Source: an uncultured Desulfobacter sp. (lineage in GTDB: Bacteria; Desulfobacterota; Desulfobacteria; Desulfobacterales; Desulfobacteraceae). Taken from it: DNA of 64,000 nucleotides. The position numbers and the translations under genes are program-made. The notes beneath the pieces were generated by a model, which did no database searches, was not told the DNA's origin, and worked only from the letters and a program-made list of their open reading frames with translations. How positions within the stretch are numbered: position 1 is the stretch's first letter; each line of letters opens with the position of its first letter. Of the stretch, positions 24,483 through 48,060 are shown piece after piece. Location of the stretch: positions 2,300,544 to 2,364,543 of the forward strand of contig OY762929.1 of the NCBI GenBank assembly GCA_963666675.1, in the 5' to 3' direction.

Positions 24483-25670
24483 ATGCCGGGTGGTTTTGTT
24501 TTTAAAATCATCCGGCTTATTGAAAAGAGTATAATTTTGAATACGATTTTTAAAAATAAAACAGATGTAAGGATTATTGCCTCAAAAAACAGTTGGATAG
24601 AAGGGAAGGCGGAACGTCAGTTGCTGAAGACATCAGGACTTGATGGGGTTGAATGCAGTGTTGGTTTTCCGGATATTCATCCAGGCCGGGGCATTCCCAT
24701 TGGTGCCGCATATTTAATTCGCGGGATCATTTACCCCTATTTAATCGGGAACGATGTGGGATGCGGAATCGGTCTTTTCAGGACTGGTATCAGAAAAAAT
24801 AAAATTAAAATTGATAAGTGGATCAGAACACTGGGTGATCTTAATGATCCTCATGGGGTCGACATTTCCTATTGGATGGATCAATTGGGGCTGAAGACAC
24901 CTTTGACAGATACTGCTTTAGGGACCATTGGTTCAGGAAACCATTTTGCCGAATTGCAAACAATAGAAAAAGTTTTTAACGAAGAATTGTTTTTCGGCAT
25001 GGGGCTGGATAAGAATCTGCTTACCCTGGTTGTTCACAGTGGTTCACGAGGTATTGGAGAGGCCCTGCTTCGCAGACATGTAGATAAATATGGTACCCGA
25101 GGGCTCCAGTCGGATAGTCAGGAGGGTAAGGAATATTTAGTCCGGCACGACCAGGCTTTAAAATGGGCAGGTTGTAACCGGGCAGCCATAGCTGAGAAGT
25201 TTGCATCCAGAATTGGAACAGACTGCTGGCCCATCATTGACACATATCACAATCAGATCTCATACGTGAATTCCGATAATGAGGGCTTCTGGCTGCATCG
25301 AAAAGGCGCCGTTGGTTCTGATTTCGGCCCTGTTTTAATACCAGGATCAAGAGGTAGTTTAAGTTATCTTGTCAGGCCCAAAGGGGATCAGCGCAAAAAT
25401 TTATTGTCCCTGCCCCATGGGGCTGGGCGGAAGTGGGATCGGGCCGGTTGCAAGGAGAGGCTGAGAAGTCGATATGATATTAATTCCCTTAAAAGAACAG
25501 GGTTTGGCGGTCATGTGATTTGTGATGACAGGGAGCTTTTATATGAAGAAGCCCCTCATGCCTATAAAAATATCGATCAGGTGATTCAGGATCTTCTTGA
25601 TGAAAATTGGGTTGACGTTATTGCCACATTTAAACCGCTGGTAACATACAAAAAAAGGAAAAATAAATGA
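24483..25670 (+). CDS. release-factor-H-coupled RtcB-family RNA ligase (RtcB2)
   Basis: 395 aa. RtcB-family motifs (metal-binding His/Cys, GSGNHFAELQ, PHGAGR). Translationally coupled to prfH by an ATGA overlap. Confidence 0.75.
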   Translation: MPGGFVFKIIRLIEKSIILNTIFKNKTDVRIIASKNSWIEGKAERQLLKTSGLDGVECSVGFPDIHPGRGIPIGAAYLIRGIIYPYLIGNDVGCGIGLFRTGIRKNKIKIDKWIRTLGDLNDPHGVDISYWMDQLGLKTPLTDTALGTIGSGNHFAELQTIEKVFNEELFFGMGLDKNLLTLVVHSGSRGIGEALLRRHVDKYGTRGLQSDSQEGKEYLVRHDQALKWAGCNRAAIAEKFASRIGTDCWPIIDTYHNQISYVNSDNEGFWLHRKGAVGSDFGPVLIPGSRGSLSYLVRPKGDQRKNLLSLPHGAGRKWDRAGCKERLRSRYDINSLKRTGFGGHVICDDRELLYEEAPHAYKNIDQVIQDLLDENWVDVIATFKPLVTYKKRKNK

Positions 25671-26296
25671 TAAACTGGTTACAGATAACATCCGGGCGCG
25701 GCCCGGAAGAGTGTTGCTGGGTTGTGGCAAGGCTATCGGAATGCATTGTCAAAGAGGCGGAAATCAAAGGGATTTCATACAAAATTATTGAAAGGATTTC
25801 CGATGTTAAATCAAACTTGCCCAAATCGGTATTGATTTCACTTGAAGGGGATGCCGTTGATACCTTTGCAACCTCTTTTGAAGGGACGGTCCAATGGATT
25901 GGCAAAAGCATGTTCAGGCCGCATCATAAGCGGAAAAACTGGTATGTTGGCGTGAATCTCTTTTCACCCCTGAAAGAAAATAAGTGGTCTTTTGATCAAT
26001 TGAAAATCGAAAAGATGAGAGCATCCGGGCCTGGCGGACAGAATGTCAATAAAAGAGAGACAGCTGTCAGGATTACACATAAACGAACCGGTTTGAGTGT
26101 GACAGCCCAGGAGGAGCGTTCTCAGTATCTGAACAAAAAGCTGGCGTTAAGCCGGTTAAATGAATTGCTGAAAAAAAAAGAAAGTAAAACCGAGATGAAA
26201 AGTCAGAATCGTCGATGGAATGGCCATAATCGGCTTGAACGGGGCAACCCTGTCCGGGTTTATAAAAACGAAGAATTCAGTTTGACTATAGTTTGA
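25667..26296 (+). CDS. prfH: peptide chain release factor H (PrfH; GGQ-containing RF lacking domain 1)
   Basis: 209 aa. SGPGGQNVNKRETAVRITH release-factor catalytic motif. Short length and pairing with an RtcB paralog define the PrfH family. Confidence 0.75.
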   Translation: MINWLQITSGRGPEECCWVVARLSECIVKEAEIKGISYKIIERISDVKSNLPKSVLISLEGDAVDTFATSFEGTVQWIGKSMFRPHHKRKNWYVGVNLFSPLKENKWSFDQLKIEKMRASGPGGQNVNKRETAVRITHKRTGLSVTAQEERSQYLNKKLALSRLNELLKKKESKTEMKSQNRRWNGHNRLERGNPVRVYKNEEFSLTIV

Positions 26297-26339
26297 TGGT
26301 GTCCCGGGGAATCACGGGTGGTGATTTCCCGGGATTGTT

Positions 26340-27542
26340 TTACCCTTTCACAACCCCGAGAGGGCGAAGTTTGTTCAGGGGCTTGATCAAATCAAGCTGG
26401 TCTTCAATTACGGTTTCAATATTTTTATATGCCTGGGGTGCTTCCCCAAGGTCGTACATGCCCTTGGCTTTGCCGCGCCTGACCTTACTCCAGCGGTCGA
26501 AAACGATGCCTTGCATGGCCTGGTCGCAGTTTTCGGGTGTAAGTTCTCTGGTTGCCTGTAGCCGTCCCAGGACCCGCCCTGCACCATGGGAACAGGACAT
26601 GAACGACTCAGGATTACCCAGGCCTTCGACGATGAAGGAAGGGGTTCCCATTGAACCAGGAATAATTCCGGTCTCTCCTTGTTTGGCTGAGGTTGCCCCT
26701 TTTCTATGAACCCACACATTCTTATTAAAATGGTTTTCCAGGGCTGCATAATTATGGTGAATATTAACTTCATCGGCAAATTCAGTCCCGGGGAAAACTT
26801 GCGTAAAAGCATCCTTGAACCGGGTCATTATTTTTCTGCGGTTTTCACGGGCATAAGAGAGTGCAAAATTCATATCATTGATATAATTTTGCCCTTCCGC
26901 TGTCTCTGCCGGCAAAAATGCCAGGTCTTTTCCTGGTGTGTCTGCATGCCACTTTTGATTCAGTTTAACCGCAATGTCATTATAAAAGCGTGCTATCACA
27001 TTGCCCAGATGCCGGGAACCGGAGTGGATCATCAGCCAGATCCGGTCATCATCGCCTGCCTGGATTTCTATAAAATGATTGCCGCCGCCAAGGCTGCCTA
27101 AATTTTTATAGGCAAGTTTTTTAACATGGGACGAGTACCACCCTCTCTCTTCATACGCTTCAATGTCATCAAGGTTTTCCCATATCTGGGGCTCTTTATG
27201 GGCGTTACCTTCTCCACAGGGAATATATTTTTTGACCAATGTAACAGCCTCTCGTAGGTTGTGCCGGCTAGTTTCGGACACTGGGAGGTTGGTTCTGACA
27301 GATCCCATGCCACAACCGATATCCACACCCACGGCATTAGGGATAACAGCATTGTCCGCGGCAATTACGCCACCGATGGGCATACCGTAGCCCGGATGAC
27401 AGTCCGGCATCAGGGCTACGTGGTGGAAAACAACAGGGTGCATGGCCAGATCCTCGGCTTGCGCCATGGCAAGTCCTTCGAGGTTTGAACACCAGGATTT
27501 TATAGGGACTTTATATTTATCTTCTTTTTTTACCCACTCCAT
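26340..27542 (-). CDS. rtcB: RNA-splicing ligase RtcB (canonical, 3'-phosphate/5'-OH RNA ligase)
   Basis: 400 aa. Hallmark motifs DCHPGYGMPIGGV, GGGNHFIEIQ, HSGSR, SCSHGAGR. Confidence 0.85.
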   Translation of the reverse strand: MEWVKKEDKYKVPIKSWCSNLEGLAMAQAEDLAMHPVVFHHVALMPDCHPGYGMPIGGVIAADNAVIPNAVGVDIGCGMGSVRTNLPVSETSRHNLREAVTLVKKYIPCGEGNAHKEPQIWENLDDIEAYEERGWYSSHVKKLAYKNLGSLGGGNHFIEIQAGDDDRIWLMIHSGSRHLGNVIARFYNDIAVKLNQKWHADTPGKDLAFLPAETAEGQNYINDMNFALSYARENRRKIMTRFKDAFTQVFPGTEFADEVNIHHNYAALENHFNKNVWVHRKGATSAKQGETGIIPGSMGTPSFIVEGLGNPESFMSCSHGAGRVLGRLQATRELTPENCDQAMQGIVFDRWSKVRRGKAKGMYDLGEAPQAYKNIETVIEDQLDLIKPLNKLRPLGVVKG

Positions 27543-27569: not shown

Positions 27570-27654
27570 AGTCTCAGTAAGCCACTGAGTTCTTTAAACC
27601 TTTGTTGTGGGTCGAGCCTGGGTGTCGATAGATCAGGTCGGCCCATGGCTGTTA
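27570..27654. repeat. single copy of the REP/MITE-like repeat in the rtcA-rtcB spacer
   Basis: aagaaagtctcagtaagccactgagttctttaaacctttgttgtgggtcgagcctgggtgtcgatagatcaggtcggcccatggctgtt. Same unit as at 11385..11690. Confidence 0.55.
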
Positions 27655-28698
27655 TTTTTCAACTGATATCTGCCAACGGCGGTCATCAATTTTTGTACAG
27701 TTTATATTCAGGTCTAAAAATTGTTTTACGACTTCAATATTTGTCATTGTATGACGGCTGGGCGGTTGGGTGACAAATGACCCTCCACCGGCCATGGCCA
27801 AAGGGATTAACAATTGATCCGCAAGATATTTTCCCACGGGGGCATCAGAAGCCAGATAGCTTTTCACCTGACCCACACATCTTTTGGCAACCTTTTCAGC
27901 GGTAACCCCTTTGACCCCGAATCCGGTAAACACCTCTGTAAGATTTTCGCTTTCCACGCAGAGCGTCAACACGTTCCCCGGTCCATGGGAATCAAGGATG
28001 TTCACAATTTCACAGTTTTCCCAGCCCAACAGCTTTTTGACTGTTTTAATCTCTCTTGCTGCAATGTTTTCAGCCAGGTTTGCTACAAACGCCTTTGCTG
28101 TTTTATTTAATACGTCACCCCGCTGGGTGAGATCTATTTTTCCAAGAGGGGCAGGGGCAATCTCTACTTTTATCTTTCCCCCGCCAGCCGGATAAAAACC
28201 GGGGCGAATCAAAGCTGCTGACACGGTTGGGCCCATCTTGTTGATGAGCCCAATAAATGTCTGATCGAGAAAATCAAAAGGCGGGGCATATGGATTGTGG
28301 GTGCCGCCTTCCAGTATGACCTCGGACGGTCCGTCTGCCGCCAGCAATGCCGGTAATATTGTTTGAAGGACCAATGTGCAGCTTCCTGCTGTTCCGATGG
28401 CAAAATTATAATTGCCGGTGATTATATTGCTTGGTTCAAATTTAATGGACTGTGAACCGATGTTCGCACCTTCTGCCTTTGCATTGCCCACTTTGAGGGC
28501 CGCATTGACGCAGGTCAGGTGCTGCCGCATCAGTCCCGGCTTTTTTCTCCCTGCCCGGATCTTGTTTATTGTGAAAGGTTTGCCTGTAACCAGGGACAGG
28601 GCAAGGGAGGTCCTCAAAATTTGTCCGCCACCTTCTCCAAGCATTCCGTCAATCTCCAACATGATATTATCCTTTTGCTTTAACTGCGCTAAGTTCAC
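27652..28698 (-). CDS. rtcA: RNA 3'-terminal phosphate cyclase RtcA
   Basis: 348 aa. [22 protein letters not shown]...RAGR.KPGL.RQHL matches the RtcA nucleotidylation-site region (a downstream Met is a possible start). Confidence 0.8.
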
Positions 28699-29046
28699 AG
28701 CAGGTTCACAACACGATCCGCAAGCCCTTTTTCTCCGAGCACAACACTCATTTTTGAATTTGATACCACCCTTTCAAGGATATCAAGTTCACGCAGCCTC
28801 ATCAGTGTTGGATTGTTGTCCAGAAGCTTGGCTGTGTTTGCCTGGCTTCTCATGGCTGCAGTCTCTTCTCTTCTCATGATCAGGTTGGATTCTGCAGCCT
28901 TTTTGGCTTCAATGACCTTGTTCATCAGGTCTTTCATATCGCCCGGCAATATAATATCTCTGATGCCGAAGCTTCTTACCTGAATGCCTAAAGCTTGAGC
29001 GCTGTCTTGGATCGCCGCAATCAAATCATTTGATACGTTTTCTTTT
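28695..29046 (-). pseudogene. SPFH/band-7 (stomatin/HflC-like) gene, C-terminal fragment, severed by IS66 insertion
   Basis: Reading frame continuous from the IS boundary (29046) to the stop at 28695. Coiled-coil C-terminal region typical of SPFH proteins. The N-terminal half lies at 31645..32401 beyond the IS. Confidence 0.55.
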
Positions 29047-29196
29047 GTGTCCTTTCGGCAAGCCTGTGTAAATCAAAAAAATTAAGATAACATTCAAAAC
29101 AGACCCGATCCAAAAAAACAGTGTGTAAGGCGATGAGGGATAGTTTGCAGTGCAAAAATGTGTCTCAAAACATACTGGATTGGCTAAAAGGTCGTT

Positions 29197-30759
29197 TTAC
29201 AGATTATCAGCTGTTTCCCCTGATTTTTTAGCGATTGTGTTTTCAAATGACCACGGCAACCAGTCAGAAGGGTTTTGGAAGATCTCGGAAGAGTGCTTCT
29301 GTAGTGCGGTCAGGTATTCAAAGGGATTTATATTTTGCAGGTTGCAGGTATGTATCAGGCTCATGAACAGGTCGCCAATATAGGCACCGTGTTCGGTTTT
29401 ATAAAATAATGAATTTTTTCGGTGCAGAATCGACTTTTTCAGCAATTGTTCGCAAAGATTATTATCCAGCGGTGCTCCAGGGATCTCCAGGAAACGGGTC
29501 AATTCCTGCCAGTGATTCAACATATATGATATGGCCTTGCCCAGACTGGAGTTGGGTTCTACTTCTTTGTTTTCAAACTTGTCTTCCAGCCATACTTTAA
29601 GCGCCCGCATCAGTGGACCGCTGTGGGTTTGATGATATTGAAGGCGTTGAGCATCGTCCAGGCCTTGCTCCCTTACCTTATGATCGTGCTCATAAATTTT
29701 AGCCACTGTATCAATTACATGGTCACACTCCTCAGGGAAATCGTCCATGACGTCGACAAAGTTACGGCGTCCATGCACGAGACAATTGCATAATATCGAT
29801 TCAAAACCTTTTGGCAGATTCCTGGACAGAGCATCACACATCTGTATTGGCCGATCTTCTCTGGATCCCCGTTCTTTCAGAATCCTGGATAAATTTTCTC
29901 CAGCATGATTGTGGCCGGTAAAAAACAGGGCAATCTTTCCTACGTCACATTCTGACAGGATTCCGGAAGTGAACATCCCTTTTCGCTTGGCTGCCTTGTC
30001 TGTTTCTTTTATCAAGGATAAAATTTTCATTGTCGTGTCGTCATTGTACAACACCTTGCCTTGTGCAGCCTGACGGACTAACTCTGTATATACCGGATGA
30101 ATCTTGTCTGCTACGCTTTCGATGATTTCCCATTGGGTCGATGGGGGCAGCGGCATCCCCAGGCTAGCCTGAAGTTTGCCCAAGCGGTATAAAGGGACTC
30201 CTCTGCCATATTTTAGAAGGGCCAGCATGGCACCGGATTTGGCATCATATTTTTCTTTGCCCACATTGTCGGGCGCCTGGGCAGTAAAAATCTGCCCACA
30301 AAGGTTACACCGCAATCTCTGCAGTTCATATACTGTCGCCTGGAAGGGAGCACCGCCTGTTATCCGGACGATCTTGGCAGGTGGTTTTTCACCATACAAT
30401 TTACCTTTTTCACAGGCAGGGCAATCATTACCTGACTTAAGGCTTTGATGACAGATCTTGATCTTCTTGGCACCTTTATAGGCGTTTGCACCATTTTTGC
30501 CGTGACCTTTTTTCTTCTTTTTTCGTTTCGGCCGGTTCTGCGGATTCGACGTTTTCTTCTTTTCGGTCTTATCGCCGAATACCATTTTTAATAACCGTTT
30601 AATGGATGCTGCTTTTTCATTGGACAACGTATTCAAATAAGCAACGGTTTCAACCAATGCTTTGATCAACTCATAATCGCCGTCCTGCAGTTCATTTGAT
30701 CTTACCCGCTCAAGGAGCGCGTCAAGTTCGTCCTGCTTTATGTCCATCGTTTTTGACAT
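29197..30759 (-). CDS. IS66 transposase TnpC (zinc-finger + DDE)
   Basis: 520 aa. CPACEKGKL...CNLCGQ zinc-ribbon, leucine-zipper-like N-terminus. Typical IS66 Orf3 architecture. Confidence 0.8.
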   Translation of the reverse strand: MSKTMDIKQDELDALLERVRSNELQDGDYELIKALVETVAYLNTLSNEKAASIKRLLKMVFGDKTEKKKTSNPQNRPKRKKKKKGHGKNGANAYKGAKKIKICHQSLKSGNDCPACEKGKLYGEKPPAKIVRITGGAPFQATVYELQRLRCNLCGQIFTAQAPDNVGKEKYDAKSGAMLALLKYGRGVPLYRLGKLQASLGMPLPPSTQWEIIESVADKIHPVYTELVRQAAQGKVLYNDDTTMKILSLIKETDKAAKRKGMFTSGILSECDVGKIALFFTGHNHAGENLSRILKERGSREDRPIQMCDALSRNLPKGFESILCNCLVHGRRNFVDVMDDFPEECDHVIDTVAKIYEHDHKVREQGLDDAQRLQYHQTHSGPLMRALKVWLEDKFENKEVEPNSSLGKAISYMLNHWQELTRFLEIPGAPLDNNLCEQLLKKSILHRKNSLFYKTEHGAYIGDLFMSLIHTCNLQNINPFEYLTALQKHSSEIFQNPSDWLPWSFENTIAKKSGETADNL

Positions 30760-30792
30760 GAAATGTGTGCTATCACATTTAAACTCTAATGT

Positions 30793-31140
30793 CTAGATTT
30801 TTTTCCACAAAAGTACATTATTTTTTTGAGGATTTCCGTTCCATATCAACATCTGTAATTCATGTGCAGCCAATGGGTGAATTTCATCTCCTCCCTTTTT
30901 AGGCCACCATTTAAAACGCCCCTTGCTCAATCTTTTTTGACAAAGCCAGAAGCCCTGGCCATCATATATTAGTATCTTCAGGGCAGTCCCCGGTTTGTTT
31001 CTGAAAACAAAAACATATCCGGAAAAAGGATTTTGTTTTAACACCCTGCGACAAACAGCTGCCAGGCCGTCGATCCCCTTTCGAAAATCAGCAGGAGTTA
31101 CCGCCAGCATTATCCGCATTTGCGGTGTGATTTGGATCAT
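30793..31140 (-). CDS. IS66 Orf2 (TnpB)
   Basis: 115 aa MIQITPQMRIMLAVTPADFRKGIDGLAAVCRRVL... is the characteristic IS66 TnpB. Confidence 0.8.
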   Translation of the reverse strand: MIQITPQMRIMLAVTPADFRKGIDGLAAVCRRVLKQNPFSGYVFVFRNKPGTALKILIYDGQGFWLCQKRLSKGRFKWWPKKGGDEIHPLAAHELQMLIWNGNPQKNNVLLWKKI

Positions 31141-31577
31141 GGAACACCAGCCAGTAAATATTTACCAAGGCTGATCACTGCCGGGTCTGCACGACCTTTA
31201 AAACACATACGCATCTTAAAACCGGCCTGATTCTCCATTTCTATTATACAGTTGGTATCTTCCGGCGCTGGAGTGATCTCTATAAACAGGGGGGAGTCAT
31301 CGTCTTCTTCAGGAGAATCGACTGTAGTACAATGAATGGCATTATAAATTTTTTGTTTTAATGTGGTATGATTAAGCCGTAAACTGTGGGCAATCTTATT
31401 TATGCTCAGCCCTTGAGCATGGTGAAGGTCTGCTGCCGCCTGCCATAAATTATCCGGTATTCTTGACCTTCCGGTTCTGTTATTTCGCCAGTCTGCAAAA
31501 AGCTGCTGGACTTTTTCTAATGCGATTGATTGTTCTGCTGTCAATAATTGTTTATTCATCGGTCCCTCCATTAGCAA
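31137..31577 (-). CDS. IS66 Orf1 (TnpA, HTH)
   Basis: 146 aa. Position and overlap (ATGA) with Orf2 match the IS66 three-ORF layout. Confidence 0.7.
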   Translation of the reverse strand: MLMEGPMNKQLLTAEQSIALEKVQQLFADWRNNRTGRSRIPDNLWQAAADLHHAQGLSINKIAHSLRLNHTTLKQKIYNAIHCTTVDSPEEDDDSPLFIEITPAPEDTNCIIEMENQAGFKMRMCFKGRADPAVISLGKYLLAGVP

Positions 31578-31644
31578 TGTTCAAGTTGGAACCGATAATA
31601 TCACCCGGTACTGGGTATTTCACGCAGGCTTACCGGAAGGACAC

Positions 31645-32401
31645 TTTCTTTTTCGTTCAGCACTGAATCAAGTTCCAATGCACCAATCACGGATCGTAAT
31701 GCAAGTTGCGCCTCCCTGTACAAGACTTGTTGGCTGTCTTCGGACAATGATACTGATTTCAGCGCATCTGTGATGCCAAAGCTCAGCATGGCATTCATTC
31801 TCAGAGTCACTTTATCAGATGTCATGATCTCCTGGCCTGACACATTCAGGAGTTTTTCTCTCAGATCAACCGGAAAGAACCTGTTTACAGCTGTTCCGGT
31901 CCAGAAAAGATGGCGGCCTGCGGGAAGGGTCTCAACATATTTTCCATCTTTAAAGTGCACACATTTATGCCCTTCCTGGACATCAACAATATAGAAAAAT
32001 TGAGCCGCATCTTCATTTTTTGCGATCTGGGCCACAGCCTCGTGCATGAAACGAACCTGTCTTGCATCAATTATCTCAACCCTTAGTTTTTTAAAGTCTT
32101 TCCAAAGGGCGTAAAGGCCGGGGCCGAGGATTTTGGCAAACCTTCCTTCAACCCATACAAGTGCACGCTGATAATCCTCTAAGTCAATGACCTGCACGTG
32201 ATTGTCCAGCATACCAGACTTAATCATTAAATCTAAATTCTCATGAATCAGCCATGGATTTTTCATTGAGGCAATGTCTACTCTGACGCTGAAAAAGGGA
32301 TCCGCAAACCAGTGGCGGCCTTTTTCCAGGATACCTTTAAATTCTCTATCTTTGAAGTATAACCCTTTTTCGTAAGAACGGATTTTTTTTGTTCTAATCA
32401 T
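31645..32401 (-). pseudogene. SPFH/band-7 gene, N-terminal fragment (first gene of SPFH-rtcA-rtcB operon), truncated by IS66 copy 1
   Basis: ATG at 32401. SPFH-type core (KVTLRMNAMLSFGITD...). The ORF runs 43 nt into the IS before stopping. Confidence 0.55.
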
Positions 32402-32460
32402 TTTTTTTCCTTTTCGTTTTCAAGCCGTTCTCAGTCCGGCCAATGTAATGGTTTAAGAAG

Positions 32461-32476
32461 AGCAATCCGTCATCCG
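32461..32476 (-). promoter_or_regulatory. weak candidate sigma54 (-24 GG / -12 TTGCT) promoter element upstream of SPFH-rtcAB
   Basis: Minus-strand sequence cGGatgacggaTTGCt has the GG-N10-GC spacing. Only a partial match to TGGCAC-N5-TTGCW. Expected because RtcR is a sigma54 activator. Confidence 0.2.
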
Positions 32477-32731
32477 GCGACACCTGGATCTGCGGAGCAG
32501 TATTTAAGTATATGAATCATGCTTGCTTCGTTTGGCGGATACTCTGTCAAACCAAACCATAAGCTCAACATTTTTTCTTCATTCGTTGTGAACAGTTCAT
32601 ATACGGTATCCATATGCTTCATGGCGAATCCGTGGGTGTTGTTTTCTCCATCTGCCTGATAAAATTTCAGCGTTTGGGAAAACCTGCCGGATCACTTCAT
32701 GCCCTCCTTAAACCTTTTTAAGATAAACCAA

Positions 32732-32804
32732 TTACCGGAGCAGGAATCGAACCTGCAACTCTCGTGTCCTTTGCACGATGCTCTACCCATTGAGCTATCC
32801 ATTA
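32732..32804 (-). pseudogene. tRNA-like element, apparently degenerate (class I cloverleaf, A at position 33, acceptor-stem mismatch, no encoded CCA)
   Basis: Minus-strand TAATGGA-TA-GCTC-AATGGGTA-GAGC-A-TCGTG-CAAAGGA-CACGA-GAGTT-GCAGG-TTCGATT-CCTGC-TCCGGTA-A. Good D-arm (GG18-19) and T-arm (TTCGATT). The anticodon loop lacks U33, and the 5' acceptor strand has 2 changes that break pairing. Confidence 0.4.
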
Positions 32805-33046
32805 AGATGCCGTTCCTTTGTTAGAATCCATGTCCGGAACACCCAGTATTTACAGCTTTAGTTGAATACTGTGTGCCGCTGGCCCGGTGGCATCTGCCTT
32901 TGCTATAAAGCAACGGGTGTGCCAGTTGCTAAAAGAAATATTTATAAAATTATAACTATTTAAAAAAATAGTGATTATGACGAGTTTTGGGGCATTAGAA
33001 GCTTGACATGTGATATTTGCGTTTTGTAAAATATAGAAATATTGAT

Positions 33047-34651
33047 ATGAAAAAAACGGTTGTAATCGGGATTTTAGGGCCTGTACTTGATAGAGGGGAA
33101 AATGCATCACGGTGGGAACACTGGCGGCCAACTGTGGCGATATGTCAGCACAGCGAGCTTTTGGTAGATCGCTTTGAGCTCCTTTATGAGAAAAATTATA
33201 CTCGTCTGATGAAGCGGGTAAGAGAGGATATCCGGGATGTCTCTCCGGAAACGCAAGTGGTTCCTGTTGAAACCGATTTTTCTGATCCGTGGGATTTTGA
33301 AGAGGTATATGGCGTATTGCTCGATTTTGCCAAAGGATACCACTTTGATATTGAAAATGAAGATTATTTGATTCATATCACCACAGGGACCCATGTTGCC
33401 CAGATATGCCTTTTCCTTCTCATCGAATCAAACTATTTGCCGGGTCGGTTATTGCAGACAAGTCCTCCCCATAGAAAAAGGAACCATGATCTGAGCGGGG
33501 AATATAGAATTATTGATTTGGATCTTTCCCGATATGATCAGATTGCCATGCGATTCGAGCAGGAGATGAAAGATGATATTTCTTTTCTAAAATCCGGCAT
33601 AGAAACACGGAACCCATCGTTTAATAATTTGATTGAACAAATTGAGCGTGTTGCCATCAACTCGGTTGACCCTGTTTTGATAACAGGCCCCACCGGCGCT
33701 GGTAAATCCCGTTTGACCAGAAGGGTGTATGAATTGAAAAAAGCCAGACGCCAGTTAAAAGGGCGTTTTGTGGAAGTCAATTGTGCGACCTTGAGAGGTG
33801 ATGGGGCAATGTCTGCTCTTTTCGGGCATAAAAAAGGGTCATTTACAGGGGCGACCAGCGACAGGGACGGCCTTTTAAAAACAGCAGATAACGGCATGCT
33901 GTTTTTAGACGAGGTGGGCGAACTTGGCCTGGACGAGCAGTCCATGCTGCTTAGGGCAGTTGAGGAAAAGCAGTTCCTGCCTGTGGGTTCCGATACCGAG
34001 GCCCATAGTGACTTCCAACTGATTTGTGGTACCAACCGGAACCTGTTTCAAGATGTCATGGAAAAAAGATTCCGGGAGGATCTTCTTGCCAGAATAAATC
34101 TATGGACGTTTGAAATGCCGGGATTGAATAAGCGGCCTGAAGATATTGAGCCGAATTTGAACTACGAACTTGACCGTTTCACCGAAAGAACCAAACGGCA
34201 TATCACATTCAATAAGGAGGCTCGGAATCGATTTTTAAAATTTGCAACCTCCCCCGAAGCGCTCTGGCCTGCAAATTTTCGAGATCTTAACGGCGCCATT
34301 ACAAGAATGGCAACACTTGCACCTGGTGGCAGGATCACGGACCAGGTTGTCAAAGATGAAATCCATAGACTATCCCTTAGATGGGGCTCCTTTCCAAAGC
34401 AAAGAGATGATGGAATATTAGTGGAACTGATCGGTGAAGAACGAACTGCAGCTCTTGATCGATTTGAAAAAATACAGCTTGCAGATGTTATTAGAATCTG
34501 TCGCACTTCCAAAAATATTGCACAGGCAGGCAGAACTCTTTTTGCAGCATCAAGAAAAAGAAAGACACGTTCAAATGATTCGGACCGACTGAGAAAATAT
34601 CTTTCTAGATATCAAATAAGCTTTCAAACTCTCCGATTACTTCAAAAGTAA
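33047..34651 (+). CDS. rtcR: RtcR: sigma54-dependent transcriptional activator with N-terminal CARF domain, AAA+ sigma54-interaction domain and C-terminal HTH
   Basis: N-terminal region MKKTVVIGILGPVLDRG...WRPT..ICQ...LIHITTGTHVAQICLFLL is the RtcR CARF signature. Central GPTGAGKS Walker A and GAFTGA-like FGHKKGSFTGA region. Divergent from the rtc operon. The ORF-track start 33017 is probably too early. Confidence 0.8.
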   Translation: MKKTVVIGILGPVLDRGENASRWEHWRPTVAICQHSELLVDRFELLYEKNYTRLMKRVREDIRDVSPETQVVPVETDFSDPWDFEEVYGVLLDFAKGYHFDIENEDYLIHITTGTHVAQICLFLLIESNYLPGRLLQTSPPHRKRNHDLSGEYRIIDLDLSRYDQIAMRFEQEMKDDISFLKSGIETRNPSFNNLIEQIERVAINSVDPVLITGPTGAGKSRLTRRVYELKKARRQLKGRFVEVNCATLRGDGAMSALFGHKKGSFTGATSDRDGLLKTADNGMLFLDEVGELGLDEQSMLLRAVEEKQFLPVGSDTEAHSDFQLICGTNRNLFQDVMEKRFREDLLARINLWTFEMPGLNKRPEDIEPNLNYELDRFTERTKRHITFNKEARNRFLKFATSPEALWPANFRDLNGAITRMATLAPGGRITDQVVKDEIHRLSLRWGSFPKQRDDGILVELIGEERTAALDRFEKIQLADVIRICRTSKNIAQAGRTLFAASRKRKTRSNDSDRLRKYLSRYQISFQTLRLLQK

Positions 34652-35045: not shown

Positions 35046-35447
35046 TCACAACACTCGAATTCCTGATGAGTTGTTCAGCAGAATCCACAAAAAAAGCAGA
35101 CCTGGAAAGCCCCTGGCTTTTGCAACCCTGTCAATCTTGATAAGTTTATACTCAGGAACCGTAATATTTATCCTCTGGGTCTTGGGAGCGATGAAGGTAA
35201 AATCAATATCAGAAAGGTACAAAAAACTGTCTCTGGTATACAAATCTGAATCTAAAAGGTCGTCCATTTTAGAGGGAGTCGGGGGTTCAGAGATGTCTTC
35301 GCCGTTATAATATAATTCTACCGCTTCTTGTATGTTAAGGATGGCTTCCTCCTGGGTATCACCATATGCAAAACATCCAGGGATATCAGGTATAGTCACC
35401 CCGTAACCGGTGTTATCGTCCTTATGAATAATTACCGGATATTTCAT
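35046..35447 (-). CDS. hicB: HicB-family antitoxin
   Basis: 133 aa. N-terminal MKYPVIIHKDDNTGYGVTIPDIPGCFAYGDTQEEAILNIQEAVELY is typical of HicB. Directly downstream of hicA with a 1-bp gap. Confidence 0.65.
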   Translation of the reverse strand: MKYPVIIHKDDNTGYGVTIPDIPGCFAYGDTQEEAILNIQEAVELYYNGEDISEPPTPSKMDDLLDSDLYTRDSFLYLSDIDFTFIAPKTQRINITVPEYKLIKIDRVAKARGFPGLLFLWILLNNSSGIRVL

Positions 35448-35448
35448 T

Positions 35449-35649
35449 TCACTTTCTCCATTTTAATCCTGCCATTCTATAAATATTTCTGGCTGTCCCA
35501 ATAGGTAGATCTTTTTGTAGATGAGGTACAATTACAATTTTACAATTTTCATGCTTGAATTTGTGATGATCACCAGACACTTTAACCAATACGAATCCAG
35601 CATTTTTAAGTTCTTTTATGATCTGCCTGCTGTTTATATCTATAAACAC
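35449..35649 (-). CDS. hicA: HicA-family mRNA-interferase toxin
   Basis: 66 aa. ELKNAGFVLVKVSGDHHKFKHENCKIVIVPHLQKDLPIGTARNIYRMAGL matches the HicA dsRBD-like fold signature. Confidence 0.7.
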   Translation of the reverse strand: MFIDINSRQIIKELKNAGFVLVKVSGDHHKFKHENCKIVIVPHLQKDLPIGTARNIYRMAGLKWRK

Positions 35650-35984: not shown

Positions 35985-36652
35985 TCAAGACGAACAGCTA
36001 TAGTGTGAAACGCCGCCAACGTTAAAAAATGCCTCAGGTTTTAGACGATAATATTTATCTTCTACCCTCTGCGATTGCTCATCATATGGAGAGCTAAGAA
36101 CGTCTTGCAACTCCCTTACTAAGGTGTAGTCACCCAGCATGGCTTGTTGATAGGCGGGGGCAATCAACCACTCTCGCCATGCGTATTTGGGATTTGTTTG
36201 TTTCATTTTTGTCGATATCTCAGCCAAATTTCCGCCTTTGATAACAAGGTCGCGCCAGCTTTTCAGCCAAGATTGCCATTGCTCATCAAGTTGCTGAGAG
36301 TTCTTGTTATAGAAGCTCTTTTTCAAGGCGGAAATAGTCTCTGGTACATGGGATAATTCACGGAAGAAAATGGTGTAATCCACCTCTGATTTGGTCAGTA
36401 ACTGCATTAATCCCTGCACTATATTTGGTTGATAGTCTGTCAAGCCAAGCTTGGCGGCCCACATGTTTTGCATTTGTTTTTCCATTGCCGCTGCAAAACC
36501 ATGACGTATTTGATCCAATTGTTCCAAAGCTTGGGCATCTTTTGCAAGCAGCGGTCTCACTGTAGTCCAAAACATGTGGTAATTGGCTTCTGCTGCGGTT
36601 GGCTGATTGAAGAAGGAAAAGTGTTCTCCGCCCCCGGTCCATGGCTGAAACC
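35985..36652 (-). pseudogene. selO: selO (YdiU/UPF0061 protein adenylyltransferase) C-terminal fragment, split by IS66 copy 2
   Basis: Continues the SelO sequence after ...[17 protein letters not shown] with FNQPTAAEANYHMFWTTVRPLL.... The 5' part of the annotated ORF (to 36761) is IS-derived. Confidence 0.6.
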
Positions 36653-36802
36653 GTGTCCTTTCGGCAAGCCTGTGTAAATCAAAAAAATTAAGATAACATT
36701 CAAAACAGACCCGATCCAAAAAAACAGTGTGTAAGGCGATGAGGGATAGTTTGCAGTGCAAAAATGTGTCTCAAAACATACTGGATTGGCTAAAAGGTCG
36801 TT

Positions 36803-38365
36803 TTACAGATTATCAGCTGTTTCCCCTGATTTTTTAGCGATTGTGTTTTCAAATGACCACGGCAACCAGTCAGAAGGGTTTTGGAAGATCTCGGAAGAGT
36901 GCTTCTGTAGTGCGGTCAGGTATTCAAAGGGATTTATATTTTGCAGGTTGCAGGTATGTATCAGGCTCATGAACAGGTCGCCAATATAGGCACCGTGTTC
37001 GGTTTTATAAAATAATGAATTTTTTCGGTGCAGAATCGACTTTTTCAGCAATTGTTCGCAAAGATTATTATCCAGCGGTGCTCCAGGGATCTCCAGGAAA
37101 CGGGTCAATTCCTGCCAGTGATTCAACATATATGATATGGCCTTGCCCAGACTGGAGTTGGGTTCTACTTCTTTGTTTTCAAACTTGTCTTCCAGCCATA
37201 CTTTAAGCGCCCGCATCAGTGGACCGCTGTGGGTTTGATGATATTGAAGGCGTTGAGCATCGTCCAGGCCTTGCTCCCTTACCTTATGATCGTGCTCATA
37301 AATTTTAGCCACTGTATCAATTACATGGTCACACTCCTCAGGGAAATCGTCCATGACGTCGACAAAGTTACGGCGTCCATGCACGAGACAATTGCATAAT
37401 ATCGATTCAAAACCTTTTGGCAGATTCCTGGACAGAGCATCACACATCTGTATTGGCCGATCTTCTCTGGATCCCCGTTCTTTCAGAACCCTGGATAAAT
37501 TTTCTCCAGCATGATTGTGGCCGGTAAAAAACAGGGCAATCTTTCCTACGTCACATTCTGACAGGATTCCGGAAGTGAACATCCCTTTTCGCTTGGCTGC
37601 CTTGTCTGTTTCTTTTATCAAGGATAAAATTTTCATTGTCGTGTCGTCATTGTACAACACCTTGCCTTGTGCAGCCTGACGGACTAACTCTGTATATACC
37701 GGATGAATCTTGTCTGCTACGCTTTCGATGATTTCCCATTGGGTCGATGGGGGCAGCGGCATCCCCAGGCTAGCCTGAAGTTTGCCCAAGCGGTATAAAG
37801 GGACTCCGCTGCCATATTTTAGAAGGGCCAGCATGGCACCGGATTTGGCATCATATTTTTCTTTGCCCACATTGTCGGGCGCCTGGGCAGTAAAAATCTG
37901 CCCACAAAGGTTACACCGCAATCTCTGCAGTTCATATACTGTCGCCTGGAAGGGAGCACCGCCTGTTATCCGGACGATCTTGGCAGGTGGTTTTTCACCA
38001 TACAATTTACCTTTTTCACAGGCAGGGCAATCATTACCTGACTTAAGGCTTTGATGACAGATCTTGATCTTCTTGGCACCTTTATAGGCGTTTGCACCAT
38101 TTTTGCCGTGACCTTTTTTCTTCTTTTTTCGTTTCGGCCGGTTCTGCGGATTCGACGTTTTCTTCTTTTCGGTCTTATCGCCGAATACCATTTTTAATAA
38201 CCGTTTAATGGATGCTGCTTTTTCATTGGACAACGTATTCAAATAAGCAACGGTTTCAACCAATGCTTTGATCAACTCATAATCGCCGTCCTGCAGTTCA
38301 TTTGATCTTACCCGCTCAAGGAGCGCGTCAAGTTCGTCCTGCTTTATGTCCATCGTTTTTGACAT
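36803..38365 (-). CDS. IS66 transposase TnpC (copy 2; 2 aa differences from copy 1)
   Basis: Identical 520-aa translation except R/S and I/V substitutions. Confidence 0.8.
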   Translation of the reverse strand: MSKTMDIKQDELDALLERVRSNELQDGDYELIKALVETVAYLNTLSNEKAASIKRLLKMVFGDKTEKKKTSNPQNRPKRKKKKKGHGKNGANAYKGAKKIKICHQSLKSGNDCPACEKGKLYGEKPPAKIVRITGGAPFQATVYELQRLRCNLCGQIFTAQAPDNVGKEKYDAKSGAMLALLKYGSGVPLYRLGKLQASLGMPLPPSTQWEIIESVADKIHPVYTELVRQAAQGKVLYNDDTTMKILSLIKETDKAAKRKGMFTSGILSECDVGKIALFFTGHNHAGENLSRVLKERGSREDRPIQMCDALSRNLPKGFESILCNCLVHGRRNFVDVMDDFPEECDHVIDTVAKIYEHDHKVREQGLDDAQRLQYHQTHSGPLMRALKVWLEDKFENKEVEPNSSLGKAISYMLNHWQELTRFLEIPGAPLDNNLCEQLLKKSILHRKNSLFYKTEHGAYIGDLFMSLIHTCNLQNINPFEYLTALQKHSSEIFQNPSDWLPWSFENTIAKKSGETADNL

Positions 38366-38398
38366 GAAATGTGTGCTATCACATTTAAACTCTAATGT

Positions 38399-38746
38399 CT
38401 AGATTTTTTTCCACAAAAGTACATTATTTTTTTGAGGATTTCCGTTCCATATCAACATCTGTAATTCATGTGCAGCCAATGGGTGAATTTCATCTCCTCC
38501 CTTTTTAGGCCACCATTTAAAACGCCCCTTGCTCAATCTTTTTTGACAAAGCCAGAAGCCCTGGCCATCATATATTAGTATCTTCAGGGCAGTCCCCGGT
38601 TTGTTTCTGAAAACAAAAACATATCCGGAAAAAGGATTTTGTTTTAACACCCTGCGACAAACAGCTGCCAGGCCGTCGATCCCCTTTCGAAAATCAGCAG
38701 GAGTTACCGCCAGCATTATCCGCATTTGCGGTGTGATTTGGATCAT
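38399..38746 (-). CDS. IS66 Orf2 (TnpB), copy 2
   Basis: Identical to the 30793..31140 product. Confidence 0.8.
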   Translation of the reverse strand: MIQITPQMRIMLAVTPADFRKGIDGLAAVCRRVLKQNPFSGYVFVFRNKPGTALKILIYDGQGFWLCQKRLSKGRFKWWPKKGGDEIHPLAAHELQMLIWNGNPQKNNVLLWKKI

Positions 38747-39183
38747 GGAACACCAGCCAGTAAATATTTACCAAGGCTGATCACTGCCGGGTCTGCACGA
38801 CCTTTAAAACACATACGCATCTTAAAACCGGCCTGATTCTCCATTTCTATTATACAGTTGGTATCTTCCGGCGCTGGAGTGATCTCTATAAACAGGGGGG
38901 AGTCATCGTCTTCTTCAGGAGAATCGACTGTAGTACAATGAATGGCATTATAAATTTTTTGTTTTAATGTGGTATGATTAAGCCGTAAACTGTGGGCAAT
39001 CTTATTTATGCTCAGCCCTTGAGCATGGTGAAGGTCTGCTGCCGCCTGCCATAAATTATCCGGTATTCTTGACCTTCCGGTTCTGTTATTTCGCCAGTCT
39101 GCAAAAAGCTGCTGGACTTTTTCTAATGCGATTGATTGTTCTGCTGTCAATAATTGTTTATTCATCGGTCCCTCCATTAGCAA
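38743..39183 (-). CDS. IS66 Orf1 (TnpA), copy 2
   Basis: Identical to the 31137..31577 product. Confidence 0.7.
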   Translation of the reverse strand: MLMEGPMNKQLLTAEQSIALEKVQQLFADWRNNRTGRSRIPDNLWQAAADLHHAQGLSINKIAHSLRLNHTTLKQKIYNAIHCTTVDSPEEDDDSPLFIEITPAPEDTNCIIEMENQAGFKMRMCFKGRADPAVISLGKYLLAGVP

Positions 39184-39250
39184 TGTTCAAGTTGGAACCG
39201 ATAATATCACCCGGTACTGGGTATTTCACGCAGGCTTACCGGAAGGACAC

Positions 39251-44562: not shown

Positions 44563-45110
44563 ATGAAAAAGGGAAAAGTCTTATCGTGTATTTTTATTAT
44601 TATTTTTTCTGTTTGCATAAAAATAAATCCTATCTTAGCATCGGATTCTCCAATTTTTGAGGATAATTTCGACGTTACAAACAATTGGTCTGCAGATAAT
44701 GGAGTATGGGAAGTTGGTATACCGACCAGCGGACCGGGAAGCGCCAATAGCAGCACAAATTGTGCTGGGACAATTTTAAATGGTAATTATCCTGATAATA
44801 CGGACAGCCGTCTTATTGGACCCTTTCGTTCCCCTTGGGATCAAGGTATTGAGCTTCCCGAGGTGACTGGAGATGAAGAGATCCGCCTGCGTTTTTGGCA
44901 CTGGTTTTCCTATTCCAACTATAATTACCCCAACCATTATGACCGGTATGACAAAGGACATGTCCAAGTCGATGTTTTTGACGAAGATACAGGCAGTTGG
45001 CCGGGAAACTGGCAGACTTTGGGCAGTGTTCAGGCGTATTCACCTGTATGGTCTTTGATGAGTGTGGATCTCACCGCTTTTGCCGGTCAGAAAATCAGGA
45101 TTGCATTCTA
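44563..45110 (+). pseudogene. 5' fragment (signal peptide + first ~175-aa beta-sandwich repeat) of secreted repeat protein, truncated by transposon insertion
   Basis: MKKGKVLSCIFIIIFSVCIKINPILA signal. Repeat sequence identical to units in 48103..50160. Diverges from the repeat consensus after ...QKIRIAFY at about 45109. Confidence 0.6.
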
Positions 45111-45355
45111 TTGTTAATTCTTTCCCTACAGTACCTCTATATCATCTAAAAATCCCACCTATCGTTACATTTTCTGAGAAAATAATGAGCTTGTTAAATA
45201 AGATTTTTTAAAAAAGAAAAGGCACATCGGTAGACAGCAGGAACCGCCCGATGCCTTGGCATCCTCCTCCCCCCCTTTGGGGGGGATAAGAGGGGGGGAT
45301 TGTGGTATAGATTAAGTTCGCCAAAACCATCACCACCACAACCCCGACCCTGCTT

Positions 45356-45853
45356 ATGAAAGAAAGCATAATAAGAAATCAGTCATCTGCCAAGGAAAAA
45401 CAACAGGTTCGTTGCTGCCATTGTTCGAGTTCTTTGACCATCCGTAACGGAACCTATCCGCGAAATCATCCCCAAGACGACACAGAAATAAGGGTTCAGC
45501 GCTATTTGTGCAAATCGCCCCTGTGTCCATGGAAAAGTTTTTCTGTTCTTCCTGAATCCATCATGCCGGTCGTCCGTCACACCCTTGAGGCGATATGCTG
45601 CTGCGCAGCCATGGTCAGTGCCGGAATGAACCAGGCACAGACGGCAAGATTCTTTGGGTGCACCCGGGGTGTTGCTAAACGGCTCAGGATCTTTTCTCAA
45701 AAATTCATGCCCTGGTTTTCCCGGGAAAAGACTGTTGCCGAATGGGGGCCGGATCCGCCCTCCTTCTGGCCGGACTTTACCAGGGATGTTTCCCAGAGTT
45801 TTTTCCCTGGAAGATGGGTTAAATTACCATCAACACAAAACATACATTGTTAA
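45356..45853 (+). CDS. Cys-rich zinc-ribbon protein (transposon accessory)
   Basis: 165 aa with CCHCSSS...CKSPLCPW cysteine clusters. Confidence 0.35.
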   Translation: MKESIIRNQSSAKEKQQVRCCHCSSSLTIRNGTYPRNHPQDDTEIRVQRYLCKSPLCPWKSFSVLPESIMPVVRHTLEAICCCAAMVSAGMNQAQTARFFGCTRGVAKRLRIFSQKFMPWFSREKTVAEWGPDPPSFWPDFTRDVSQSFFPGRWVKLPSTQNIHC

Positions 45854-45911
45854 ATTACAGTCGGTTATGTTGATATGCCACCAATTCCAACTATCAATTA
45901 AGGAGGTGGTC

Positions 45912-47117: not shown

Positions 47118-47119
47118 TC

Positions 47120-47956
47120 ATGCAAGACACCCATACCATAGAACAGGCGCCCATGGCCGATTTTTTTGGCTGGAAGTACCATCCCTTTGCCGACACCTAT
47201 GAACAGCGCAAACTCTGGCTACCCAAAGAGGACCTGCGCAAACTCGATACCATAAAACGTTTGCTGCACCATGGCAAAAGCACCGCACTGTGCGGCCCTT
47301 CAGGGACCGGAAAAACCACCTTGATTCATGCATTGGTATCGGATCTGGATCGAAATGCATACCTCCCGGTTATGCTGCCCTATGCCGGTCATCCAAGAAA
47401 CGGACTGACACGCATTCTTGCCCAGACCCTCGGGGGGGATATCAAAAGCCGGGGAATGCCTTTGATTACAAGGGTTCAGCAGCATATTGAATCCTTATCC
47501 AACCAGGCCAACTCACGTCATCCGGTGCTGATCGTCGATGATGCCCAGCGCATCGAATCCGACTCCCTCTGGGATCTTTGCTCTCTTCTGGTCCAAACCT
47601 CTAAACAGAGAAGCGCAGCCTCCCTTATCCTTGTCGGGGACGACTCTCTGTTCAGGCAACTTCGACTTTATGCAATGGCACCGATACGATCCCGGCTCAC
47701 CGGCATTATGAAAATTAATGCCATGAACGAGTATGAAACCCAGCATTTTATCGAAATCCGTCTTAAAAATGCACAAGCTCCATCGGACCTGTTTACCAAA
47801 GAAGCAATGGATTTGATCGCAAGTTCCACCCGGGGAAACAGACGGGGCGTAATGAATATGGCGACGATCTGTCTTGAGGAGGCCTATTATCACAATGAAA
47901 AAAATGTGACCGCCGAGCTCATTTACAACTCGGAATGGTTCAACGAATCTGAGTGA
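47120..47956 (+). CDS. AAA+ ATPase partner of transposase (TniB/IstB/ExeA-like)
   Basis: 278 aa. Walker A GPSGTGKTT, Walker B ILIVDDAQ. Immediately downstream of the transposase. Confidence 0.6.
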   Translation: MQDTHTIEQAPMADFFGWKYHPFADTYEQRKLWLPKEDLRKLDTIKRLLHHGKSTALCGPSGTGKTTLIHALVSDLDRNAYLPVMLPYAGHPRNGLTRILAQTLGGDIKSRGMPLITRVQQHIESLSNQANSRHPVLIVDDAQRIESDSLWDLCSLLVQTSKQRSAASLILVGDDSLFRQLRLYAMAPIRSRLTGIMKINAMNEYETQHFIEIRLKNAQAPSDLFTKEAMDLIASSTRGNRRGVMNMATICLEEAYYHNEKNVTAELIYNSEWFNESE

Positions 47957-48027
47957 AACGGAAGCGCTTGAGAGGGGACTCCGGCGCCAGGGATAACTCA
48001 GTGCGGTAGACTGCTGTCTACATGATT

Positions 48028-48060
48028 AAAGCCGGGAGGGCAAAAGCTCTCCCGGCTTTT
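48028..48060 (+). terminator. Rho-independent terminator after transposon ATPase gene
   Basis: gccgggagggcaaaagctctcccggc hairpin followed by ttttctg. Confidence 0.45.

Follow-up and report, generated by a model that had tools for sequence, protein, structure and literature searches.

A putative RtcR/sigma-54-controlled RNA-repair operon of the Band-7/b7a-tRNA type, interrupted by an IS66-family element, in an uncultured Desulfobacter sp.

Results and Discussion

In this study, we report the analysis of a stretch of 64,000 nucleotides from an uncultured Desulfobacter sp. (assembly GCA_963666675.1, contig OY762929.1, positions 2,300,544 to 2,364,543 of the forward strand), hereafter the window, which carries a set of RNA-repair genes with a gene for a Band-7 (SPFH) protein directly upstream of rtcA and rtcB. 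The locus is a member of the already described Band-7/b7a-tRNA RtcB RNA-repair type, here damaged by an insertion sequence (IS). It is probably an operon controlled by RtcR and sigma-54, in which the Band-7 protein and a tRNA-like RNA would serve as a scaffold or cofactor ribonucleoprotein (RNP), and in which the Band-7 gene would have been inactivated by the IS. The parts, the gene order, the promoter and the co-occurrence of RNA and protein are established. The tRNA-like RNA is the conserved partner of the Band-7/SPFH family, and the RNA-protein pair is the conserved core. Neither this RNA, the b7a-tRNA (32732-32804), nor the sigma-54 site appeared in an earlier note on the locus. The elements of the locus are the following (ORF, open reading frame):

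33047 to 34651 (longest ORF from TTG 33017), plus strand: rtcR, sigma-54 enhancer-binding activator with an N-terminal RtcR/CARF domain
32910 to 32924, minus strand: sigma-54 -24/-12 promoter TGGCACACCCGTTGC (TGGCAC-N5-TTGC), predicted to drive the leader, b7a-tRNA, Band-7, rtcA and rtcB
32839 to 32876, minus strand: predicted hairpin of the leader, downstream of the promoter and ahead of the tRNA-like element (RNAalifold, 11 loci)
32732 to 32804, minus strand: b7a-tRNA, tRNA-like RNA (ARAGORN call tRNA-Leu(AAG); Rfam tRNA model 50.9 bits; model R1 83.4 bits)
32480 to 32639, minus strand: conserved structured RNA domain in the spacer from b7a-tRNA to Band-7, closed by the long-range helices C, A and B and with the hairpin AUGG-AUA-CCGU
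31645 to 32401, minus strand: Band-7/SPFH 5' fragment, native residues 1-251; the frame continues into the IS, with a stop at 31601
31645 to 31652: copy of the target-site duplication TTTCTTTT, perfect 8 bp
29047 to 31644, minus strand: IS66-family insertion sequence of 2598 bp with tnpA (31137-31577), tnpB (30793-31140) and tnpC (29197-30759)
29039 to 29046: copy of the target-site duplication TTTCTTTT, perfect 8 bp
28695 to 29046 (ORF 28695-29024), minus strand: Band-7/SPFH 3' fragment, residues 250-366 and stop codon, encoding the final SPFH strand and the long helices for oligomerisation
27652 to 28662 (ORF to 28698), minus strand: rtcA, RNA 3'-phosphate cyclase, intact (PF01137 1.2e-77; NF003246 3e-130)
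26340 to 27542, minus strand: rtcB, RNA ligase, intact (PF01139 1.3e-108)

Genes of the rtc Operon

The earlier note had described the order SPFH-rtcA-rtcB on the minus strand with a divergent rtcR, which is seen both in the ORFs and in the Pfam and NCBIfam matches; the range of 28695-34651 that it assigned to the rtc operon leaves rtcA and rtcB outside. The starts of rtcR and of the SPFH gene diverge from an intergenic region of 616 bp. All three parts of an RtcR protein were found, namely the RtcR/CARF domain (PF06956, 2.5e-84, named RtcR in Pfam, the N-terminal regulatory domain called CARF in the literature), the AAA+ sigma-54 interaction domain (PF00158, Sigma54_activat, 3.4e-48) and the C-terminal DNA-binding region. 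The product also matched NF038308 with 806.8 bits (9e-243; cutoff 650), with coverage of 1-527 of 530. The true start of rtcR is most likely ATG 33047, as judged from the sequence, because the alignment to this NCBIfam RtcR model begins at residue 11 and a sigma-70-like promoter (33003-33032) overlaps TTG 33017.

Both repair enzymes are full length. RtcA keeps the equivalent of E. coli RtcA His309, and RtcB those of P. horikoshii RtcB Cys98, His203, His234, His329 and His404. The start of rtcA was placed at ATG 28662 and not at GTG 28698, because a conserved Shine-Dalgarno sequence (AAGGA) precedes the ATG and because L081, the closest relative with a long contig, has an in-frame stop two codons past the corresponding GTG. 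The sequence from the SPFH stop to ATG 28662 is weakly conserved. With this start, the gap between SPFH and rtcA is of about 32 nt, an operon-type spacing. The 4-bp overlap of the two genes previously proposed arises only when GTG 28698 is taken as the start of rtcA, and is an ORF-calling artefact.

Insertion of the IS66-Family Element into the Band-7 Gene

The insertion point of the IS corresponds to codon 250-251 of the Band-7 gene. Within the element, tnpB matched PF05717 (IS66 Orf2, 1e-28) and tnpC matched PF03050 (DDE_Tnp_IS66, 1.5e-47), while tnpA, its 146-aa first ORF, gave no Pfam match. Its terminal inverted repeats, about 25 bp long, are imperfect (22 of 25 bases matching). Given that the 8-bp duplication is perfect and that a second copy of the element, at 36653-39250, differs from this one in only 2 of 2598 bases, the insertion is clean and recent. 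A 2.6-kb IS66 copy within the SPFH gene, its transposase genes co-oriented with rtcAB, had been proposed before, and the 2598-bp element with its perfect duplication agrees with it.

When 29047-31652 was removed in silico, the two halves joined in frame, as the earlier note had anticipated, and yielded an uninterrupted, SPFH-like protein of 366 aa with a Band_7 match (PF01145) of 1.2e-27. Over its full length (100%), the rebuilt protein shares 89% identity with intact Desulfobacterales proteins of 366 aa from the "slipin family," and its junction peptide LNEKENVSNDLI matches P0001 exactly, the two proteins being colinear without a gap. Because the IS cuts away the final SPFH strand together with all helices, the Band-7 product, judged from its sequence, should be non-functional in this genome.

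Conservation of the Operon and of the b7a-tRNA

A scan of one genome per species gave at least 561 stretches encoding relatives, from which the best 80 were taken as loci for comparison. In L081, whose SPFH protein is 87% identical and whose 366-aa Band-7 is intact, the order is rtcR, tRNA-like gene, Band-7, rtcA, rtcB and then a convergent prfH-rtcB2 pair, with no IS. L082 (92% identical) shares this layout, but its Band-7 gene is called in two pieces of 304 and 60 aa (L082, 7001-8100), a split that reflects either an independent disruption or a long-read assembly error. The order rtcR/SPFH-rtcA-rtcB was also present in seven Desulfobacterota/Geobacter loci (L001, L009, L016, L025, L034, L048, and L065), which like L081 are free of the IS, so that the proposed synteny of SPFH with rtcAB holds in the relatives. 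The full set of rtcR, tRNA-like gene, SPFH, rtcA and rtcB belongs to Desulfobacterota and Geobacter-type loci. Two variants must be mentioned. In one of them (L023, 4251-7083) the RtcR-controlled genes are b7a-tRNA, rtcB and Band-7, and in the other (L020, 5468-7107) rtcR is accompanied by b7a-tRNA and Band-7 alone, with neither rtcA nor rtcB. An RtcR promoter can therefore drive Band-7 and the RNA with no other cargo.

The b7a-tRNA of the window is co-oriented with the SPFH gene and lies 330 nt upstream of it. A covariance model, R1, was trained on 27 proximal tRNA-like genes from 27 loci, across which covariation supports the cloverleaf (pairing in 92% of cells, compared with 31-46% for slid partners; none of 500 shuffles matched the observed values). 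Using R1, a b7a-type match of at least 64 bits, co-oriented and upstream of SPFH, was obtained in 69 of the 76 loci with enough upstream sequence, and in 58 of these 69 it was located 330-600 nt from the SPFH start codon. Most ordinary tRNAs of these loci did not exceed 60 bits; five others, canonical in appearance and with an acceptor stem paired throughout, reached 64-77 bits and were left out of the b7a set. Besides its upstream b7a-type element, locus L004 has a canonical-looking tRNA-Phe(GAA) directly downstream of Band-7 (7285-7357).

Among 70 b7a-type sequences the D arm and the T arm were nearly invariant, whereas 27 different anticodons were found in the 62 loops of seven nt, the remaining eight loops having 5, 6, or 8 nt. 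U33 was present in 39 and A34 in 21 of those 62 loops. The outermost acceptor pairs, 1 and 2, were formed in only 17/70 and 25/70 sequences, respectively. The anticodon is AAG in the window and GAU in L081 and L082, whose loci are 88% identical to it, and the rest of the b7a-tRNA is almost unchanged. The window RNA has A33, an A3:G70 mismatch, no encoded CCA and a variable loop of 5 nt where a bacterial tRNA-Leu would carry a long arm. As far as these sequences indicate, the b7a RNA has the shape of a tRNA without being made for decoding or charging, and caution is needed in annotation, since a standard tRNA finder labels it as tRNA-Leu(AAG).

Sigma-54 Promoter and Expression of rtcAB

The sigma-54 site at 32910-32924 was the sole match with zero mismatches within the window, and its sequence is unchanged in L081 and L082. 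Each of the 13 RtcR-containing loci examined has the motif TGGCAC-N5-TTG(C/A/T) ahead of its tRNA-like gene, at a distance of about 120-140 nt in the five loci where this was measured. In the window the tRNA-like gene begins about 105 nt downstream of the site. The promoter was not found in the 10 Planctomycete loci tested.

No other sigma-54 site was found upstream of rtcA in the window, and the only one lies beyond the IS, which thus separates rtcAB from the RtcR/sigma-54 promoter as previously suggested. Consequently, rtcA and rtcB are now 2.6 kb further from the sole recognisable promoter, while b7a-tRNA is still promoter-proximal. It is possible, although somewhat doubtful, that rtcAB are still regulated by RtcR through sigma-54 read-through of the co-oriented and translated IS, being neither silenced nor driven from an IS promoter. 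In favor of this are the position of tnpA, tnpB, and tnpC, all on the rtcAB strand, the lack of an alternative sigma-54 site for rtcA, and the fact that no terminator-like site was found on the minus strand from 32401 to 28662, the IS included. On the other hand, polar effects are common for an insertion of 2.6 kb that brings its own translation stops and starts, and the promoter-like matches within the element were at chance level, so neither IS-driven nor read-through expression is demonstrable from them. Since the IS genes are co-oriented and that strand has no terminator-like site, read-through from the sigma-54 promoter would be as possible as polarity.

Structured RNA of the Leader and Spacer

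The b7a-tRNA appears to be embedded in a longer structured RNA. In the leader hairpin, the analysis of which covered RtcR-containing loci only, the columns 83-94/132-143 showed compensatory changes (e.g., CG5/UA4 and AU5/GC3). The spacer from the tRNA-like gene to the SPFH start is non-coding and 330-580 nt long, and several of its blocks are common to loci from Desulfobacterota through Planctomycetota, namely a GNRA hairpin, GCCAUGCAGUGCGUGGAUACCGC, and, about 130 nt further on, GCUCAAAC..CACUCCGC. In an alignment of 36 loci these blocks form three long-range helices and one small hairpin, in which compensatory changes are frequent (for example AU14/GU6/GC4/CG3, CG17/UA12, and UA20/CG9). Of the cells, 93.7% are paired, slid partners give at most 51%, and none of 500 shuffles reached the observed values. 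These helices were detected by a pair-by-pair covariation scan and not by RNAalifold, which gave a weak consensus (-10.9) for the trimmed 36-sequence alignment.

In summary of their distribution, the cloverleaf with its frayed acceptor stem and hypervariable anticodon loop, the GNRA hairpins, and the domain of about 160 nt extend from Desulfobacterota to Planctomycetota, and the sigma-54 start and the covarying leader hairpin were found in the Desulfobacterota loci examined. Searched against Rfam, the intergenic region from rtcR to SPFH matched no family besides tRNA at E <=10, and neither did 10 related loci at gathering score. Neither a structured leader around the tRNA-like element nor the hypervariability of the anticodon was found in the searchable literature, a search that did not include Burroughs and Aravind (2016). 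A 50-aa ORF at 32470-32622 was considered as a gene and rejected, given that it is truncated in L081, absent from L082, and without counterpart in 16 other loci.

Planctomycetota Loci and Long tRNA Arrays

Of the 80 loci, 23 have the b7a-tRNA/Band-7 pair at the 3' terminus of a run of 7-39 co-oriented tRNA genes (within 6 kb). These loci belong to genomes titled as Planctomycetota lineages, with a few unclassified, and include L003, L007, L008, L010, L013, L014, L027, L032, L033, L039, L040, and L077 in addition to 11 more. A link of b7a/Band-7 to tRNA arrays was not mentioned in the searchable literature, with Burroughs and Aravind (2016) again outside the search. Downstream of Band-7, the ORF lists of nine Planctomycete loci showed no recurring gene order or product size (no family search was made), and a hidden set of repair enzymes in these loci was rejected because the downstream ORFs do not recur.

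Proposed Mechanism and Alternative Explanations

We propose that the operon works as follows. RtcR would sense damaged tRNA in the form of 5' halves ending in 2',3'-cyclic phosphate, as shown in Salmonella, and once activated would fire the sigma-54 promoter at 32910-32924. The resulting transcript would carry the structured leader, the b7a RNA, the structured domain of about 160 nt, Band-7, rtcA, and rtcB. The Band-7 protein, by homology to ring- or cage-forming SPFH proteins, would oligomerise via its C-terminal helices and, together with the tRNA-like RNA, could form a scaffold or cofactor RNP for end-healing and sealing by RtcA/RtcB, analogous to Ro60/Y RNA. Such an RNP may assist the repair by RtcA/RtcB or target it, as has been proposed for Ro60/Y RNA. 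In this genome, the recent IS66-family insertion at codon 250-251 would have inactivated Band-7, leaving the b7a-tRNA and the catalytically intact rtcA/rtcB.

Several points weigh against this proposal. The Planctomycete loci have no rtcR, rtcA, or rtcB near the b7a/Band-7 module, and therefore the function of the module is not strictly RtcB-dependent. Sequence alone does not separate read-through, polarity, and IS-driven expression of rtcAB. Peripheral or lipid-mediated binding of the Band-7 protein to membranes would be compatible with its hydropathy. In addition, a 2018 preprint (10.1101/312249) gives the prediction of the Band-7/b7a non-coding RNA (ncRNA) as not experimentally validated. 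In Pseudomonas aeruginosa, according to the accessible part of a 2026 report (PMC13086221), deletion of the SPFH gene PaFlo8 caused no growth, virulence, motility, biofilm, or oxidative-stress phenotype, RNA damage not being among the assays described there.

An extension of the proposed scaffold RNP, which we put forward only tentatively, is that the b7a-tRNA would be the tRNA-shaped domain of a structured leader of about 500 nt, forming with an anchorless Band-7 oligomer an RNP resembling Ro/Y RNA or vaults, and that in Planctomycetota this module closes horizontally spread tRNA arrays. If true, this would tie back-up tRNA arrays, the conflict with anticodon nucleases, and RNA repair into one system.

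With regard to the RNA, a different role is conceivable but rather unlikely in our estimation, namely that it acts as a decoy or bait for anticodon nucleases, or is cleaved to feed cyclic-phosphate fragments to RtcR, with a Band-7 cage holding or presenting it. Such a role would explain the hypervariable loop, which varies more than any other part of this conserved RNA, changes between 88%-identical loci, and would be expected to vary under an arms race. It would also explain the link to tRNA arrays, to which the module is tied in the 23 Planctomycete loci. The tRNAs of operonic arrays have themselves been proposed as sponges of toxin RNases (PMC8421152), and cleaved tRNA activates RtcR. However, many b7a loops are of abnormal length or lack U33 and might be poor nuclease substrates, and YrlA, the analogous tRNA-like RNA of Salmonella, is not cut by the SOS-induced nuclease.

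It is improbable that the SPFH protein is a stomatin-like membrane scaffold bringing an RNA-repair step to the membrane, as the earlier note had supposed. Its best fold and sequence matches are indeed the membrane SPFH proteins stomatin, HflK/C, and QmcA, and relatives are labelled "membrane protease subunit" in some sources. Nevertheless, the Kyte-Doolittle maximum over 19 residues was 0.93 in the rebuilt protein and 0.77-1.48 in 15 relatives, nowhere reaching transmembrane level. In the AF2 model (pLDDT 82.7), three beta-rich N-terminal repeats are followed by the SPFH domain and a helix at 285-346; the N-terminus is all beta, and the repeats take the place of the usual helical or hairpin anchor. 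HflK NCBIfam models scored 52, far below the cutoff of 159. Partner genes NfeD and FtsH were not found in the operon, nor NfeD in the gene tables of L081 and L082, and the conserved partner of the protein is RNA. The SPFH fold and a C-terminal coiled-coil helix suited to ring assembly are present. As no anchor is predicted by hydropathy or AF2, the membrane-scaffold idea is unsupported, and an anchorless oligomer working with an RNA partner is the better reading. PADLOC gave no match to the SPFH protein, and no homologue was found in phage genomes at E <1e-30.

Finally, that the tRNA-like gene is an ordinary tRNA-Leu(AAG), as its calls by ARAGORN and the Rfam tRNA model would have it, and the SPFH gene an unrelated passenger, is hardly credible in view of its short variable loop, A33 in place of the universal U33, A3:G70 mismatch, and missing CCA, of the GAU anticodon of its nearest relatives, and of the pairing with SPFH in 69 of 76 loci across phyla.

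Comparative genomics has already catalogued this type of operon, and one more copy, inactivated by an IS, changes little on its own. The value of the locus lies in being an entry point to the experimental study of the Band-7/b7a-tRNA partnership, for which it offers the R1 covariance model, a variable anticodon loop on a fixed body, an un-catalogued RNA domain, an anchorless protein model, and the link to tRNA arrays. In this regard, the features that merit further study are the structured leader, the hypervariability of the anticodon, and the tRNA-array link, and the questions of accessory RNPs in bacterial RNA repair and of why tRNA arrays exist become more directly testable in culturable relatives.

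Neighboring Features

Two further features adjoin the operon on the side of rtcB:

26301 to 26335: terminator-like hairpin with a 15-bp stem, between the convergent rtcB and prfH
24483 to 26296, plus strand: rtcB2-prfH pair (NF007153 1.6e-144; TIGR03072 1.4e-73), a second RNA-repair/ribosome-rescue module, convergent with rtcB

The rtcB2-prfH pair encodes an RtcB-family ligase and release factor H. As it occupies the identical place in L081 and L082, the locus is a two-module island for RNA repair and ribosome rescue.

On the other side, directly downstream of rtcR, there is a HicA toxin/HicB antitoxin pair of the RNase type (35046-35649, minus strand), reminiscent of Salmonella, where a dinJ-yafQ cassette comes after the rtc operon. 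The second IS66-family copy (36653-39250) interrupts a gene for SelO, a protein adenylyltransferase (35985-36761 and onward). It is bordered by a direct duplication of 41 bp and not of 8 bp, and taking out the IS and the 41 bp restored a SelO ORF of 577 aa. A repeat scan also detected direct repeats with a 525-bp period at 44854-49479, in three to four copies that are 75-95% identical.

Outside the window, plasmid and E. coli "slipin" genes, 31-35% identical, belong to another island (slipin, nucleotidyltransferase, zeta-toxin family), in which model R1 detected no b7a-type RNA at E <=0.01. In E. coli CP061233.1 (L083, 611814-613738) a slipin-family protein of 31% identity is encoded in an accessory island between yjbD and lysC. 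Among RefSeq complete E. coli genomes, 1425 of 5426 matched at least 80% of a 3.7-kb query over this yjbD-lysC island.

Comparison with Known Systems

With the E. coli rtcR/rtcBA system the locus shares RtcR, the sigma-54 promoter, and RtcA and RtcB with conserved catalytic residues. The E. coli operon has neither an accessory protein nor an RNA and shows the order rtcB-rtcA. The Salmonella rsr-yrlBA-rtcBA operon (PMC7790460, PMC3854526) is closer in that it is an RtcR/sigma-54 operon with a tRNA-like ncRNA ahead of the repair enzymes, and the CARF domain of its RtcR binds tRNA halves with cyclic phosphate. Its accessory components are the ring-forming, RNA-binding Ro60 (TROVE/vWA) and Y RNAs, where the window has SPFH instead, and its order is rtcB-rtcA in contrast to rtcA-rtcB here. 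No TROVE protein was found among the ORFs and Pfam matches of the window operon, and Rfam YrlA scored 14.3 bits at the locus against a gathering score of 69. As to the protein, the canonical membrane SPFH proteins (stomatin, HflK/C, QmcA, flotillin) and the major vault protein are among the nearest known counterparts.

Long tRNA arrays (L-arrays) spread horizontally, and the L-array of the Anabaena trn operon is co-induced with rtcB under translational stress (PMC8421152); the terms SPFH and Band-7 have 0 occurrences in that paper. The Planctomycetota b7a/Band-7 pairs cap such arrays, while the window itself has no tRNA array.

The occurrence of an SPFH gene within an rtc operon had been presented in the earlier note as lying outside the textbook rtcBA unit. 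The synteny indicates that the gene does belong to the operon, but the arrangement is not new. In P. aeruginosa, PaFlo8 (PA14_60630/PA4582 family) is embedded in the rtc locus (PMC13086221), so that there too an SPFH gene lies among rtcR, rtcA, and rtcB, and relatives of the window protein carry the PA4582 name. As cited in bioRxiv 10.1101/312249, Burroughs and Aravind (2016) reported that certain bacteria encode RtcB beside a Band-7 protein and a predicted ncRNA. The window resembles these Band-7/b7a-tRNA RtcB systems (Burroughs and Aravind, NAR 2016), as far as that citation describes them, in having Band-7 near RtcB and a tRNA-like ncRNA immediately upstream, and differs from them in that its Band-7 is cut by an IS. 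Here, Band-7 is directly upstream of rtcA-rtcB and the tRNA-like RNA is adjacent and co-oriented.

The most similar locus described is that of Pelobacter (Syntrophotalea) carbinolicus, Pcar_2838-2835, which is without an IS and in which rtcR is divergent from a "mutant tRNA" (Pcar_R0061), a stomatin-like protein, rtcA1, and rtcB (PMC3543383). The authors suggested the "mutant tRNA" to be a substrate or guide for the enzymes (PMC3543383). Compared by this published description, gene order and orientation are identical to those of the window, and in both a deviant tRNA separates rtcR from the stomatin-like gene.

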